Assembly (NCBI GenBank): GCA_937863685.1
Contig: CALMGM010000010.1
Coordinates: 84,158 to 148,157, forward strand
Length of the DNA: 64,000 nucleotides
Direction: 5' to 3'
Source: an uncultured bacterium
Lineage (GTDB): Bacteria; Edwardsbacteria; AC1; EtOH8
The notes below the pieces were generated by a model that was given only the letters and a program-made list of their open reading frames with translations, made no database searches and was not told where the DNA came from. Of this stretch, positions 1 to 64,000 are shown piece after piece. The position numbers and the translations under genes were made by a program. Within the stretch, counting starts at the first letter, position 1. Each line of letters starts with the position of its first letter.

Positions 1-2
1 AG

Positions 3-197
3 GCCCAGAAGATACACCTTAAACAATTCTCCCTTATCAAGGCCCTGTTTGTGGAGACCAGCCCGGGGCCGGTCAAAGCCGCTCTAAATCTGATGGGTCT
101 GTGTCACGCTGAAATGCGTATGCCGCTGGTGGAGGTATCGGACACCACCAGGAAACTGCTTAAGGCCGAGATGAAAAAATATGGATTGATAATCTGA
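3..197 (+). CDS. dapA: 4-hydroxy-tetrahydrodipicolinate synthase, C-terminal fragment (5' end outside window)
   Basis: Frame-3 translation ...PGPVKAALNLMGLCHAEMRMPLVEVSDTTRKLLKAEMKKYGLII* resembles the conserved DapA C-terminus (PIPVK..LNLMG motif); TGA at 195-197. Confidence 0.55.
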   Translation, partial: AQKIHLKQFSLIKALFVETSPGPVKAALNLMGLCHAEMRMPLVEVSDTTRKLLKAEMKKYGLII

Positions 198-200
198 CCG

Positions 201-737
201 ATGTCCCGGCTGTTGTTGCATATCTGCTGTGCGCCCTGCCTCTGTTATCCGCATCAGGTGCTGTCGGATGAAAAGGCGGATATCGCAGGCTTCTGGTTCA
301 ACCCCAATATCCATCCTTACCGGGAATACCAGGCGCGACTGGGATCGGTCAGGGATTTTGCCCAAAATCACGGGCTGGAAATGATATATGACGATTCCTA
401 CCCGTTGGAGGAAAATATTTCCCTGTTGCTGAAGGAGCGCTGCCGGGCTTGTTATTCCACCCGGCTGGAGATCACCGCACGGGAAGCCGTCCGCCGGGGA
501 TATGATGGATATTCCACCACCCTGCTGTACAGCATCTATCAGAAACACGACCTGATCAGAGATCTGGGGACGGCCATCGGCAAAAGAAACGGGGTGGAGT
601 TCATCTACCGGGATTTCAGAAAAGGCTGGGAGGAGGGCCGGGCCAAGGCCAAAGAACTTGACCTATATCGCCAAAAATATTGCGGTTGTGTCTTCAGCGA
701 AAGGGACAGATACCTGAAGAATAAAAACCAAATATAA
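201..737 (+). CDS. queH: epoxyqueuosine reductase QueH (DUF208 family)
   Basis: N-terminal LLLHICCAPC cysteine motif and overall DUF208/QueH-like sequence; lies close to queA and tgt. Confidence 0.7.
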   Translation: MSRLLLHICCAPCLCYPHQVLSDEKADIAGFWFNPNIHPYREYQARLGSVRDFAQNHGLEMIYDDSYPLEENISLLLKERCRACYSTRLEITAREAVRRGYDGYSTTLLYSIYQKHDLIRDLGTAIGKRNGVEFIYRDFRKGWEEGRAKAKELDLYRQKYCGCVFSERDRYLKNKNQI

Positions 738-755
738 AATATCAAAAATAAAGCG

Positions 756-1181
756 ATGAGCCGTAATAAAGAAAAAGTGCTGCGTTTTGGAGTTTCGGTG
801 GAAGAGGGTTTGATCGAAAAGTTCGAAAAACTCATCCGGCGCAAAGGATACACCAACCGCTCCGAGGCCATCCGGGACATGATCCGAAGCCTGCTGGCGG
901 CCGAGGCGGCAGACAAGGGCCAGGAGATGGTGGGGGCCATTCTGATAATCTATGACCACCACCGTCCTCGCCTGGTGGAGAAACTGCTGGCCCTGCAGCA
1001 CGATGCCGACGCCGAGATCATCGCTTCCCAGCATGTTCACCTGGACCATCAGCACTGCATGGAGACCATTATCGTCAGGGGACCGGTGGAAAAACTGGAG
1101 GCCCTGCAGGGAAAGATCGGCGCCTTAAAAGGAGTGGGGCAGTGCCTGCTTTCCAAGGCCAGCTGTCAAGTGCTGCATTGA
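756..1181 (+). CDS. nikR: nickel-responsive transcriptional regulator NikR
   Basis: Ribbon-helix-helix N-terminus (RFGVSVEEGLIEKFEKLIRRKGYTNRSEAIRDMIR) plus a C-terminal metal-binding domain with HVHLDHQHC His/Cys cluster; sits directly upstream of a Ni/Co ECF transporter operon. Confidence 0.8.
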   Translation: MSRNKEKVLRFGVSVEEGLIEKFEKLIRRKGYTNRSEAIRDMIRSLLAAEAADKGQEMVGAILIIYDHHRPRLVEKLLALQHDADAEIIASQHVHLDHQHCMETIIVRGPVEKLEALQGKIGALKGVGQCLLSKASCQVLH

Positions 1182-1198
1182 GGAAAGAATAATATTTC

Positions 1199-1227
1199 TT
1201 GACAGGATTTGTCAACCGTGCTACAAT
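1199..1227 (+). promoter_or_regulatory. sigma70-type promoter: TTGACA, 17-bp spacer, TACAAT
   Basis: Perfect -35 TTGACA (1199-1204) and near-consensus -10 TACAAT (1222-1227) read directly; located between nikR and the downstream OMP/transporter genes. Confidence 0.5.
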
Positions 1228-1244
1228 TATAATAATCGTAGCAC
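1218..1244. promoter_or_regulatory. 27-bp dyad GTGCTAC-N13-GTAGCAC overlapping the -10 element; candidate NikR operator
   Basis: Perfect 7-bp inverted repeat arms, read directly. Overall geometry resembles the E. coli NikR operator (6-bp arms, 16-bp spacer). A second dyad TTGACAggattTGTCAA (1199-1215) overlaps the -35 element. Confidence 0.35.
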
Positions 1245-1277
1245 GATTTTATTTTATCGGAGCCCACTGTCCTATAA

Positions 1278-61725: not shown

Positions 61726-61938
61726 ATGAGTAAAGTATTAAGAATATTATTTATTGGAATAATGTCAATATGTATAATATCAGCAGTCTATATGTTAATA
61801 GCGGTGTTCGCAACTGGGAAATGGTCTATATACATGATGTACATTTATTTTATCAGTGATGTTTTATCAATAATATCAATCTTAATTTATATAATATCAA
61901 ACGAATATAAAAGCAAGCAAAATAAGATTATGGATTAA
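61726..61938 (+). CDS. hypothetical small two-TM membrane protein (very AT-rich; ORF opens at 61666)
   Basis: ACAAAGGAG RBS before ATG; 70 aa with two hydrophobic helices (ILFIGIMSICIISAVYMLIAVFA; YFISDVLSIISILIYII); lies next to two tRNA genes. Confidence 0.35.
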   Translation: MSKVLRILFIGIMSICIISAVYMLIAVFATGKWSIYMMYIYFISDVLSIISILIYIISNEYKSKQNKIMD

Positions 61939-62065
61939 ATTTAAGATTTGCCAGTAAATCAACTATAATTTAATCGATGTTTTGTCCCGGCGTTTCGCCA
62001 TACGCATGTTGCGACTACGGCCCGAAATAAAAAAAGCCAGACATATGTCTGGCTTTGGTATTTTC

Positions 62066-62142
62066 TGGTAGCGGCTCAGGGACTTGAACCCCGGACACGC
62101 GGATTATGATTCCGCTGCTCTAACCAGCTGAGCTAAGCCGCC
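62066..62142 (-). tRNA. tRNA with CAT anticodon (elongator Met, or Ile2/lysidine type)
   Basis: RC reads GGCGGCTTAGCTCAGCTGGTTAGAGCAGCGGAATCATAATCCGCG…GGTTCAAGTCC…GCCGCTACCA; 77 nt, cloverleaf-consistent. Confidence 0.8.
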
Positions 62143-62213
62143 ATAATTGGGACATTTAAAAACCCCAGTAAAGTTTCGTGGGCCTGCAAACTCATTACTA
62201 GGGCCTGTATTTA

Positions 62214-62290
62214 TGGTAGCGGGGGGAGGATTTGAACCTCCGACCTTTGGGTTATGGGCCCAACGAGCTACCAGGCTGCTCCACCCCGCG
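62214..62290 (-). tRNA. initiator tRNA-fMet (CAT)
   Basis: RC reads CGCGGGGTGGAGCAGCCTGGTAGCTCGTTGGGCCCATAACCCAAAGGTCGGAGGTTCAAATCCTCCCCCCGCTACCA: three G-C pairs in the anticodon stem and C1xA72-type end typical of initiators. Confidence 0.85.
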
Positions 62291-62339
62291 TCGTTTATTA
62301 AAATCAACTATGCAATGATACCAAAGAACCGGCCTAAAG

Positions 62340-62666
62340 TCAAGGTCTTTTCTTGAGCGAATCGGCCGGATAAAAGCGATACGAGGTCTCCCCGGGCCTG
62401 GTCATTCCCAGTTTCTCCCGGGCCTGGGATTCCAGATAAAAGCTGTCGGATCTCAAGCGCTTGATCTCCCGGCACAGGATCTCGCTGTGGGCCAGATTGG
62501 ACAGCATCTCCTTTTTTATCCGCTTCTGCTGGCGGCCGACCCGGAGCATGGTTATCCAGCCGTAGCGTCCCATTCCGAACAGCAGGATCACGATCACGAA
62601 TGAGGATATCACCAGCGCCAGGACGGCCTTGGTGGAGCTGCTGCTATGTGCGCCGGAACGGGGCAT
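62340..62666 (-). CDS. ftsB: cell-division protein FtsB/DivIC (septum formation initiator)
   Basis: N-terminal TM anchor, coiled coil, C-terminal …LESQAREKLGMTRPGE motif; immediately downstream of eno. Confidence 0.7.
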   Translation of the reverse strand: MPRSGAHSSSSTKAVLALVISSFVIVILLFGMGRYGWITMLRVGRQQKRIKKEMLSNLAHSEILCREIKRLRSDSFYLESQAREKLGMTRPGETSYRFYPADSLKKRP

Positions 62667-62669
62667 ATC

Positions 62670-63941
62670 CTATGCTTTGAACAGGGATCTTCCGGGGTAC
62701 TGGGCGGCCGGGCCCAGCTCCTCCTCGATGCGCAGCAGCTGGTTGTACTTGGCGCTGCGGTCGCTGCGGGACACCGAGCCGGTCTTGATCTGGCCGCCGT
62801 TGACGGCCACCGCCACGTCGGCGATGGTGGAATCAGAAGTTTCTCCAGAGCGGTGCGAGATGACGGTGGTGTATCCGTTCAGCTTGGCCAGCCGGATGCA
62901 GTCCAGGGTCTCGGTAAGCGTGCCGATCTGGTTCAGTTTTATCAAAATGGAATTGGCCACTTCCCTTTCAAAGCCCATCTTCAGGCGCTTGACATTGGTG
63001 ACGAACAGGTCGTCGCCCACCAGCTGGATCTTTTTACCCAGCCGGTCGGTCAGAAGCTTCCAGCCCTCCCAGTCATCCTCGGCCAGGCCGTCCTCCAGGG
63101 AGACCACCGGATATTTAGTGACGTATTTTTCGTAAAGATCCACCATCTCGGCGGAGCTTAGCTTCTTGCCGTCCACTTTGTAGTATCCCTTTTCATAGAA
63201 CTCGGTAGAGGCCGGATCCATGGCCAGGAATATCTCTTCACCGGGCTTGTAGCCGGCCTGCTCGATGGCCCGGGTCAGCATCTCCAGCGCCTCTTCATTG
63301 GTCTTTAACGGCGGGGCAAAGCCGCCTTCGTCGCCCACCGTGGTCAGGTAGCCCTTTCCCTTGAGCAGTTTGGCCAGGGTATGGAAGGTCTCGCTGGCCA
63401 TCCGCAGGGCCTGGGAGAAGCTTTCAGCCCCGGCCGGGACCACCATGAACTCCTGCATCTCGATGTTCCATCCGGCGTGCTTGCCGCCATTCAAAAAATT
63501 CATCATCGGCACCGGCAGCAGCCGGGCGTCCACCCCGCCGATATGGCGGTAGAGGGGAATATCCAGCGCAATGGCCGCGGCCCGGACCACCGCCAGGGAG
63601 ACGCCCAGGATGGCGTTGGCCCCCAGCTTGGACTTGGTTTCGGTGCCGTCCAGCTCCAGCATGGCGGTGTCGATCTTCACCTGTTCCAGTGCATCCCAGC
63701 CGATCAGCTTGGGGGCGATGATCTCATTGACGTTCTTAACCGCCTGGAGCATGCCCTTGCCCTGATATCGCCGGGCGTCGCCGTCGCGGAGTTCCAAAGC
63801 CTCATGCTGTCCGGTTGAGGCGCCGGAGGGCACGGCGGCCCGGCCCAGGGCCCCGCATTCCAGGCGGCAGTCCACCTCGACCGTGGGGTTGCCCCGGGAA
63901 TCCAGGATCTCGCGGGCATGGATCTTGGTGATGGCGGTCAT
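62670..63941 (-). CDS. eno: enolase (phosphopyruvate hydratase)
   Basis: Full-length enolase similarity ([23 protein letters not shown]…, SHRSGETED-type motif as [22 protein letters not shown]). Confidence 0.95.
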
Positions 63942-64000
63942 GATAAAACCTCCGGAAAATATATTGATTATTTAGAGGCTTCTGCAAAAGTGTTTCCATT

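Follow-up and report, generated by a model that had tools for sequence, protein, structure and literature searches.

AT-rich gene cassettes at fixed chromosomal sites point to a lineage-wide flexible pool in Candidatus Edwardsbacteria

Results

An AT-rich mosaic in an ordinary chromosome

The 64,000-nucleotide stretch of contig CALMGM010000010.1 analyzed here, hereafter the window, comes from the chromosome of a Candidatus Edwardsbacteria bacterium (UBP2, FCB group), and it carries several AT-rich islands whose genes, mostly for predicted envelope or secreted proteins, are the subject of this work. A search with the MatE gene that lies between islands 1 and 2 returned contigs labeled Candidatus Edwardsbacteria or UBP2. 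The core of the window is that of an ordinary chromosome, with queuosine genes, a NikR/CbiMQO transporter, a P-type ATPase, Mfd, McsB, ClpC, BamA, Skp, LpxD, PBP1, DivIVA, IleS, LspA, LptD, trigger factor, PpiD, enolase, and three tRNAs. We set the window against homologous loci or contigs of relatives, denoted by L-numbers (L001, L088, and so on). These relatives are other species, about 80-90% identical in core DNA, and no conspecific genome was found.

The windowed G+C content (GC) falls to 0.29-0.40 at 15.6-17.4, 18.9-21.6, 38.5-39.0, 48.6-49.5, and 61.2-62.1 kb. A two-state hidden Markov model (HMM) placed the corresponding segments at 15666-17510 (island 1, GC 0.322), 18829-21742 (island 2, GC 0.375), 38493-38954 (island 3, GC 0.316), 48590-49608 (island 4, GC 0.363), and 61181-61983 (island 5, GC 0.340), and added a sixth at 9391-10140 (GC 0.405), within a TPR-repeat gene. 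The model also returned 15 short dips of 61-354 bp, mainly intergenic, and it found no AT-rich segment in 20 first-order Markov simulations of the core sequence. Outside the islands, the window has 57.3% G+C. The G+C content of third codon positions (GC3) averages 0.30 in the seven island open reading frames (ORFs; range 0.21-0.40, maximum 0.397) and 0.727 in the 47 other genes (standard deviation 0.10, range 0.505-0.90); the two distributions do not overlap (Mann-Whitney p = 2.4e-5). Similarly, the mean FYMINK/GARP amino-acid ratio is 2.76 for island ORFs versus 1.14 for the others, and composition-normalized tetranucleotide signatures correlate at r = 0.75-0.88 between core segments versus 0.09-0.52 between islands and core.

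A preliminary description of this DNA had pictured a core above 60% G+C interrupted by five sharply bounded AT-rich insertions. All five were recovered by windowed GC, HMM, GC3, and tetranucleotides, and their borders are indeed sharp. The computed core value is lower than had been proposed, the HMM raises the count to six, and it widens island 5, first placed at 61500-61940, to about 61181-61983. The borders had further been said to coincide with start and stop codons or repeats; this does not apply to the start of island 1, where AT-richness begins about 110 nt inside the LVIVD gene. The remark that no recognizable mobility gene is present agrees with our Pfam, NCBIfam, PHROGs, and PADLOC scans of the window, which found none, nor any integrase or transposase at the island borders. 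All island products had been taken for envelope or secreted proteins, and six of the seven do look so; the GNAT acetyltransferase at 38495-38920 has neither a signal peptide nor a transmembrane segment. The window gave no phage, plasmid-type, or defense signal: PADLOC returned no informative matches and PHROGs only generic repeat or GNAT matches. Islands 1 and 2 showed no DNA similarity to phage records, the sole match falling within MatE.

A tandem pair with a lasting compositional contrast

Island 4 lies in the second of two tandem genes for CsgG/LpoB-like envelope proteins. The first, B1 (47716-48597, + strand; PF03783), is the native, GC-rich copy (GC3 0.75), with 93% amino-acid identity to its counterparts in L081 and L085 and 84% to that in L086. 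The second, B2 (48619-49476, + strand), is AT-rich (GC3 0.325) and encodes a signal peptide; it follows B1 after 21 bp, collinear and on the same strand. The two proteins are 49% identical overall and 73% (95/130) in the N-domain, and both end in the decapeptide GISTALSMEF. At the 92 identical N-domain residues, the third base is G or C in B1 and A or T in B2 47 times, and the reverse 5 times. The composition difference between the two genes is therefore not due to their protein sequence.

The arrangement recurs in relatives. B2 follows B1 in the window, L081-L083, L085, and L095, and it immediately precedes IleS in the window, L081-L085, and L097; L084 starts within an AT-rich B2 that adjoins IleS, and the AT-rich B2 of L097 abuts a GC-rich IleS. 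These positional orthologues are all AT-rich, with GC3 of 0.27-0.32 in L081-L085 and 0.38 in L095, and a GC of 30-36% in 100-nt windows of L097. The flanks of the relatives are GC-rich (B1 GC3 0.70-0.88; IleS 0.74 on contigs that extend so far). L095 has core proteins just 60-75% identical to those of the window, and its fourfold-degenerate sites differ at 34-63%; its B1 has a GC3 of 0.88 versus 0.38 for its B2. Since the contrast is kept at near-saturated synonymous sites, amelioration is absent and no low-GC donor is visible. A tree of the N-domain places all of the species-rich B1 clade as sister to the B2 clade; members of the latter differ in length, and all are of the AT type in amino-acid usage (FYMINK/GARP 1.7-2.5 versus 0.5-1.4). 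By this tree, B2 is an old paralogue lineage that stayed AT-rich.

The two halves of B2 behave differently. Compared with L085, the N-domain (GC3 about 0.40-0.47) has a synonymous divergence (dS) of 1.74, set against 0.46-0.69 in core genes, and a ratio of nonsynonymous to synonymous divergence (dN/dS) of 0.05. Similarity to relatives ends at 49056, and the C-terminal half beyond differs between genomes: the window encodes a B1-like membrane domain, and L084, L085 (B2 at 2089-2991), L095, and L097 encode an unrelated lysine-rich domain, of which L081 (10001-10702) has a truncated copy. L086 has no B2. Over the last 43 nt of B2 and the spacer after it, the window agrees at 91% with the end of B1 in L081; this suggests that the tandem copies underwent gene conversion. 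Upstream of the pair, pfkB and B1 are separated by a 234-aa ORF with multiple transmembrane segments (46826-47530; GC3 0.57, no family match), which is missing in L081, L082, L085, and L095, where B1 directly succeeds pfkB.

Island 1 and the adjoining genes

L088-L091 represent another species, with core proteins 82-94% identical to those of the window. Its gene order is Tgt, His-phosphatase, TPR, ATPase, esterase, a protein with a type IX secretion system (T9SS) tail, CsgG-like, LVIVD, a 169-aa ORF, MatE, a 329-aa ORF, GNAT, and Mfd. The AT-rich LVIVD gene (GC3 0.24), 169-aa ORF (0.24), and 329-aa ORF (0.40) stand among genes with GC3 of 0.65-0.90. In a third lineage, L093, the CsgG-like gene has a GC3 of 0.72, LVIVD 0.295, and the 169-aa ORF 0.22.

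The first gene of island 1 in the window (15556-16857, + strand) encodes an LVIVD-repeat beta-propeller lipoprotein (PF08309, E = 9.7e-14; GC3 0.265), with a lipoprotein signal and lipobox readable in the translation. Its positional orthologues in L088 (56% amino-acid identity) and L093 (53%) are the AT-rich genes just named; the next-best homologue reaches 46%, and the relatives are proteins of Edwardsbacteria/TA06 or unnamed metagenome proteins. Sliding identity is 77-87% up to about 15950 and 52-65% beyond, which separates a conserved 5' third from a hyper-divergent, AT-rich remainder. Against L088, the 5' part has a dS of 0.69 and the 3' two-thirds one of 1.44, compared with 0.23-0.49 in core genes.

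The second gene, unk17 (16883-17326, + strand; GC3 0.21), encodes a small N-terminally anchored protein, with a transmembrane segment read from the translation. Its site is occupied in L088 and L093 by the 169-aa ORF (unk169), whose two copies are mutually alike, AT-rich (GC3 0.22-0.24), and without similarity to unk17. LVIVD and unk17 or unk169 thus sit between the CsgG-like gene and MatE in all three lineages, and unk17 is a replaceable cassette. Relaxed Pfam and NCBIfam scans gave no family match for unk17, unk20, orf61, or unk46. Other relatives differ more strongly at this site: L001 carries unlike cargo, namely a trypsin-like protease, a DDE transposase, and two small ORFs that match no Pfam family, and in L002 esterase, MatE, and Mfd are adjacent, without any islands. 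Despite the differing upstream cargo, the right-hand anchor of island 1 (17354-17424, + strand), an intrinsic-terminator-like hairpin upstream of MatE (17392-17416, then a T run), is kept in L001 (86%), L002, L088, and L093 (91%).

The MatE efflux gene (17509-18858, + strand; PF01554), a core gene that separates islands 1 and 2, has the highest GC3 in the window (0.90) and 91-93% amino-acid identity to L001 and L088. It is also 72-76% identical to proteins on contigs labeled Aminicenantes, Acidobacteriota, and Chrysiogenales (L006-L014, L029), which is much closer than would be expected between phyla; inter-phylum transfer or mislabeled bins may account for this. Several of these loci have AT-rich dips adjoining MatE.

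The sixth AT-rich segment is the 3' part (9391-10140) of the TPR-repeat gene (8863-10317, + strand; TPR Pfam matches), and it is hypervariable. In nucleotide comparison with L088, the 5' part is 80-91% identical and 9391-10140 is 44-69% identical, with dS of 0.49 and 2.5, respectively. The gene is missing altogether from L001.

Several further features surround island 1. A 420-aa CsgG/LpoB-like gene (14325-15553) is split into two ORFs, 14325-15047 and 14978-15553, which are 84% and 82.5% identical to the intact gene of L088. The frameshift, near 14929, is a 1-nt deletion in an A run (window CAGCAAC-AAACC versus CAGCAACAAAACC) and reflects either a pseudogene or a homopolymer sequencing error. 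Between the esterase and this gene, 13947-14208 holds three tandem units of about 109-110 bp (GTCATTGCGAG...GCAATCCA); in L088 this place codes for a 470-aa protein bearing a T9SS sorting domain. Island 5 (about 61330-61375) contains a related piece, GTCATTGCGAGG...GAAGCAATC, that L085 lacks. Intergenic DNA at island borders holds GC-rich, REP-like hairpins, such as CCCCCTCCCATGAGGAGGGGG and GCCCCTTCCCTTGCGGGGAAGGG, at 13840-13880, 14205-14250, 15466-15536, and 21871-21939. Two of these places, 15471-15536 and 21871-21936, form a 66-nt inverted repeat (82%) that encloses islands 1 and 2 plus MatE.

Insertion and exchange in island 2

Island 2 is flanked by direct repeats of about 45 bp, at 18892-18936 and 21469-21513 (both + strand), which both match L001 9036-9080. 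The right copy contains the core motif ATCAACGTTCATCAGCGT at 21494-21511 and overlaps the remnant start of a GNAT gene (GNAT259) that is present in L001 and L088 and lost here. Copies of the repeat stand on either side of the 329-aa ORF (unk329) in L088, and in L001 two copies lie only 167 bp apart with no gene between them. The repeat core is ATCAGCGT-TC-ATCAGCGT, an 8-mer pair at 10-bp spacing, found at 18913-18937 and 21494-21511 and nowhere else in the window, as well as at L001 9061-9078 and 9228-9245 and L088 13528-13545; such spacing would suit a putative dimeric or tandem DNA-binding protein.

A conserved, AT-rich, promoter-like leader (18890-19099, + strand; sigma-70-like site TTGATT/TATAAT at 18989-19017) is 78% identical to L088 13507-13709. 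In the window it precedes a gene for an SBBP beta-propeller protein (19092-20459, + strand; PF06739, E = 5.5e-13; GC3 0.34) with a signal peptide; in L088 it directly precedes unk329, the orthologue of the window's next gene, unk20. SBBP is missing between leader and unk329 in L088, and is missing from L001. It is a precise insertion separating the conserved leader from unk20, specific to this genome among those compared. Its best homologue, 67% identical, lies on an AT-rich 1.6-kb contig, and the next reach at most 34%. A C-terminal T9SS-type sorting domain scores below threshold (Por_Secre_tail PF18962, 17.5 bits versus a cutoff of 27; TIGR04183, 19.1 versus 23); many SBBP homologues carry PF18962.

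The gene unk20 (20476-21465, + strand; GC3 0.40) encodes a secreted protein with a signal peptide and without a family match, and only 6 related cluster representatives were found among 1.84 billion. Its orthologue unk329 has the same GC3 and likewise comes after MatE. The body of unk20 is 97-99% identical to L088 at the nucleotide level, versus 87-97% across MatE and 91% over Mfd. Its dS is 0.076 in the body and 0.49 in the 5' part, compared with 0.23-0.49 in core genes. Such values indicate that unk20 was recently shared between species. We had considered balanced changes between weak (A or T) and strong (G or C) bases in unk20, with a very low weak-to-strong turnover, as an argument against amelioration; given the recent exchange that the near-identity of the body implies, this argument was abandoned.

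Downstream, a small non-coding element at 21700-21875 (also 21961-22046) opens with the hairpin TTACTTTCT(C)TTGTGACCAAGA(G)AAAGTAAC. It matches L088 4893-5288, at another locus between the ATPase and esterase genes, with 90% identity, and stands where L001 and L088 have the GNAT gene. The hairpin alone repeats at the left edge of island 5 (61422-61452) and at L085 14863-14882, and the hairpin-led element may be a miniature mobile element. We also considered the hairpin motif (61422-61452, 21702-21728) and the ATCAGCGT repeat as dispersed att-like sites; each is confined to those places in the window, and we draw no wider conclusion from them.

Island 5 and tRNA-flanked sites

Island 5 (61181-61983, + strand) lies between ppiD and a tRNA-Met gene (62066-62142), a site that is also occupied in L085 and L086. 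It contains orf61 (61726-61938, + strand), a 70-aa ORF with two transmembrane segments read from the translation. The stretch 61419-62143 is 90% identical to L085, reaching 97% over most of orf61, compared with 80-92% for ppiD; the dS of orf61 against L085 is 0.026, compared with 0.46-0.69 in the core. L086 has different AT-rich DNA at this site, with a 411-aa ORF. Beyond it, L085 has about 410 bp extra between two tRNA-Met genes (15594-15968; window equivalent 62143-62152), encoding a 124-aa 23S rRNA-intervening-sequence protein (PF05635) that the window lacks. A further hot spot, between lptD and tRNA-Leu, is empty in the window (56225-56249) and holds a 2-kb insert (7621-9624; GC 43-46%) with an ABC-2 transporter pair in L086.

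Island 3 and variable blocks of ordinary composition

Island 3 consists of the GNAT acetyltransferase gene (38495-38920, - strand; PF00583, PF13508; GC3 0.29), whose product is of cytoplasmic type and shows no similarity to the AT-rich GNAT of L093. It lies in a variable block (36981-40864) that is absent from L081 and whose remaining genes are of ordinary composition (GC3 0.52-0.75). More broadly, L081 lacks counterparts of the genes in 34070-36201 and 37002-40817 and retains lpxD, the MBL-fold gene (36231-36980), and PBP1; in L081 the MBL-fold gene comes immediately after LpxD and is separated from PBP1 by a single CMD gene. The extra genes of the variable stretches include a beta-eliminating lyase, unk37, PEMT, Abhydrolase_3, and unk40, with GC3 of 0.61-0.79, and, at the low end, CxxCxxCC (0.53) and DUF2087 (0.52). 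Only GNAT is AT-rich.

Separate histories and a proposed lineage-wide pool

Overall, the AT-rich segments have histories distinct from those of their flanks. Relative to the neighboring core, dS is raised about 3- to 6-fold in the 3' parts of TPR and LVIVD and in B2, and lowered 3- to 20-fold in unk20 and orf61. Values so far above or below those of the flanks indicate cassettes that are much older than the species split or were recently exchanged, and hence recombination within the lineage. Breakpoints fall inside genes (TPR at about 9390, LVIVD at about 15950, B2 at 49056) and in non-coding DNA, at the terminator-like hairpin 17392-17416 and the repeats of about 45 bp around island 2. In the border sequences of LVIVD (5' part, 0.69) and unk20 (5' part, 0.49), dS rises little over the core range of 0.23-0.49, with few samples. 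A cassette is absent from relatives at the orthologous site only in the cases of SBBP, unk17, and GNAT, and not for LVIVD, unk20, B2, and orf61. No homologue was seen in a uniformly low-GC context; every readable context was the same mosaic of GC-rich and AT-rich DNA.

Conserved position, persistent AT-richness, separate histories, breakpoints, and lineage-restricted homologues are all borne out by the comparisons, and four of the five islands are long-standing, positionally conserved, lineage-restricted, and persistently AT-rich. The argument for persistence rests on LVIVD and B2, which extend across three to five lineages. We propose, with a probability of roughly 0.6, that the cassettes in the AT-rich patches belong to a lineage-wide flexible pool that is exchanged at fixed sites, stays AT-rich, and encodes mostly envelope or secreted proteins.

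Under this proposal, cassettes would be swapped, inserted, or lost by recombination through conserved flanks, the anchors being the 5' part of the same gene, a conserved terminator, the 45-bp direct repeat, or the next core gene. Turnover would presumably be driven by selection for variation of exposed structures under phage or predator pressure; the view of the preliminary description that the pattern is relevant for surface variation fits. The core GC3 near 0.75-0.9 would be held by GC-biased gene conversion (gBGC) or selection against AT-biased mutation, and cassettes too divergent to recombine with their homologues would escape this GC-favoring force and stay AT-rich. Such an escape is, we infer, the most likely cause of the AT-richness, and it fits the match between AT-richness and hyper-divergence at sub-genic scale in TPR, LVIVD, and B2.

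Several observations weigh against this proposal. High dS in the AT-rich segments could stem partly from weaker constraint on synonymous sites, and SBBP, unk17, and GNAT, which have no positional orthologue in the compared genomes, are possible recent imports from outside. Core intergenic DNA, at a GC of 0.423, is less AT-rich than the islands (GC 0.32-0.375, GC3 about 0.30), so the simple argument that equates mutational equilibrium with intergenic composition is not an exact fit. Against the simple version of escape, unk20 and orf61 are AT-rich despite recent exchange. The variable genes unk37, Abhydrolase_3, and the beta-eliminating lyase have GC3 of 0.73-0.79; with several variable genes of ordinary GC3, the flexible and the AT-rich sets are not identical, and variability alone is not the cause of AT-richness. 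Envelope localization is predicted from signal peptides and a sub-threshold T9SS match. Finally, all the comparisons are between species (about 80-90% nucleotide identity) rather than strains.

Alternative explanations

A stronger version of the proposed pool, which we regard as possible though doubtful, is that Edwardsbacteria have two stable compositional compartments, of which the AT-rich one would be actively maintained, by exclusion from gBGC or by an AT-sensing silencing system.

We consider it unlikely that each island is an independent, fairly recent acquisition from low-GC donors whose signature has not yet ameliorated, a reading of the repeated uptake that the preliminary description had suggested. 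Composition and tetranucleotide signature are certainly atypical, and presence is patchy, with L001 and L002 lacking islands 1 and 2, L081 the GNAT block, and L086 B2. Island 5 adjoins tRNA-Met, direct repeats surround island 2, and SBBP, unk17, and GNAT are specific to this genome, the best SBBP homologue lying on an AT-rich contig. However, LVIVD, unk20, B2, and orf61 have equally AT-rich positional orthologues in other Edwardsbacteria, which confines the possibility of recent import to SBBP, unk17, and GNAT. The closest homologues belong to the same lineage, with the next best at no more than 46% (LVIVD) and 34% (SBBP): by taxonomic best match, the check that the preliminary description had proposed, LVIVD, SBBP, and B2 are closest to Edwardsbacteria or unnamed metagenome proteins rather than to low-GC phyla. 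The B1/B2 contrast, moreover, outlasts near-saturated synonymous divergence, no uniformly low-GC donor context was seen, and the window holds no integrase or transposase genes.

Similarly improbable, in our judgment, though the chief competing account of the lasting AT-richness, is that selection keeps the segments AT-rich for silencing by a nucleoid-associated or other AT-sensing regulator, with cassette exchange being secondary. AT-richness does persist across species, even in the strongly conserved N-domain of B2 (dN/dS 0.05), and the adjacency of B1 and B2 on one strand would argue against a simple difference in expression level. A precedent exists in the silencing by H-NS of SPI-1, a pathogenicity island in Salmonella (PMC7232297; reviewed in PMC8476142). 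Yet no silencer is encoded in the window and none is known in the phylum, where no dedicated search was made, and the most AT-rich parts are hypervariable coding parts rather than promoters.

A mosaic produced by chimeric assembly or by low-GC reads mis-binned into a GC-rich contig is very improbable: although the window is a metagenome assembly and the SBBP, unk17, and GNAT junctions are known from this contig alone, reading frames continue through the composition change in the TPR, LVIVD, and B2 genes, and the recurrence of the CsgG-like/LVIVD/MatE/unk329 junctions in L088-L091 and 20 more contigs, of the B1/B2/IleS junctions in L081-L085, L095, and L097, and of island 5 in L085, in independent assemblies from ENA, NCBI, JGI, and Logan with different samples and pipelines, excludes chimeric assembly for islands 1, 4, and 5 and unk20.

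Discussion

Our analysis corrects the shortcut by which an AT-rich patch is equated with a recent low-GC import. The AT-rich segments mark loci where related genomes differ in surface proteins, and they will confuse composition-based binning and detectors of horizontal gene transfer in metagenome-assembled genomes of Edwardsbacteria. As an internal control for the factors behind GC content within a genome, the B1/B2 tandem pair is unusually clean. If an AT-rich compartment is indeed maintained, the pair would serve as a natural paired experiment that could tell the effects of gBGC, codon selection, and regulatory selection on base composition apart.

Classical acquired genomic islands, in the model of Lawrence and Ochman, are said to carry a donor signature that is then ameliorated. 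The islands described here resemble them in atypical composition and codon usage, patchy distribution, tRNA adjacency (island 5), and direct repeats (island 2). They differ in that they lack a mobility gene and an identifiable low-GC donor, show no drift toward the composition of the host, and have orthologues at the same site in several species.

A second parallel is SPI-1 of Salmonella, an AT-rich island that resists amelioration (PMC7232297). As in SPI-1, AT-richness is kept in every carrying lineage over a long time in a GC-richer genome; unlike the many small cassettes seen here, SPI-1 is one large, coherent island with the silencer H-NS and counter-silencers. Both gBGC or selection for GC and AT-biased mutation pressure have been described in bacteria (Lassalle et al. 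2015, PMC4450053; Hildebrand et al. 2010, PMC2936529). The heterogeneity they would produce resembles our observations, with a recombinable, conserved core rich in GC3 and too-divergent segments rich in AT, down to sub-genic scale. The simple gBGC picture differs in that unk20 and orf61 are AT-rich though recently exchanged.

The replacement flexible genomic islands known from aquatic prokaryotes (Lopez-Perez, Martin-Cuadrado, and Rodriguez-Valera 2014, PMC4033161) are multi-gene clusters, such as O-chain or flagellar glycosylation loci, compared between strains of one species (>98% average nucleotide identity), and near-identical cassettes between diverged genomes are their "smoking gun" pattern. 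The Edwardsbacteria cassettes share with them a common location with divergent content of a similar kind, mostly for exposed structures (here predicted), and, in unk20 and orf61, near-identity between otherwise diverged genomes. Likewise, no integrase or transposase lies at the borders in the window, and exchange apparently proceeds via conserved flanks; a DDE transposase is present, however, at the island-1 site of L001. By contrast, each unit here is one gene or a portion of one, compared between species, the rise of dS in bordering genes is only mild (LVIVD 5' part, 0.69), and phage pressure is assumed. Flexible islands and AT-rich islands that resist amelioration are both phenomena already known from cultivated bacteria; the example from an uncultivated phylum is new.

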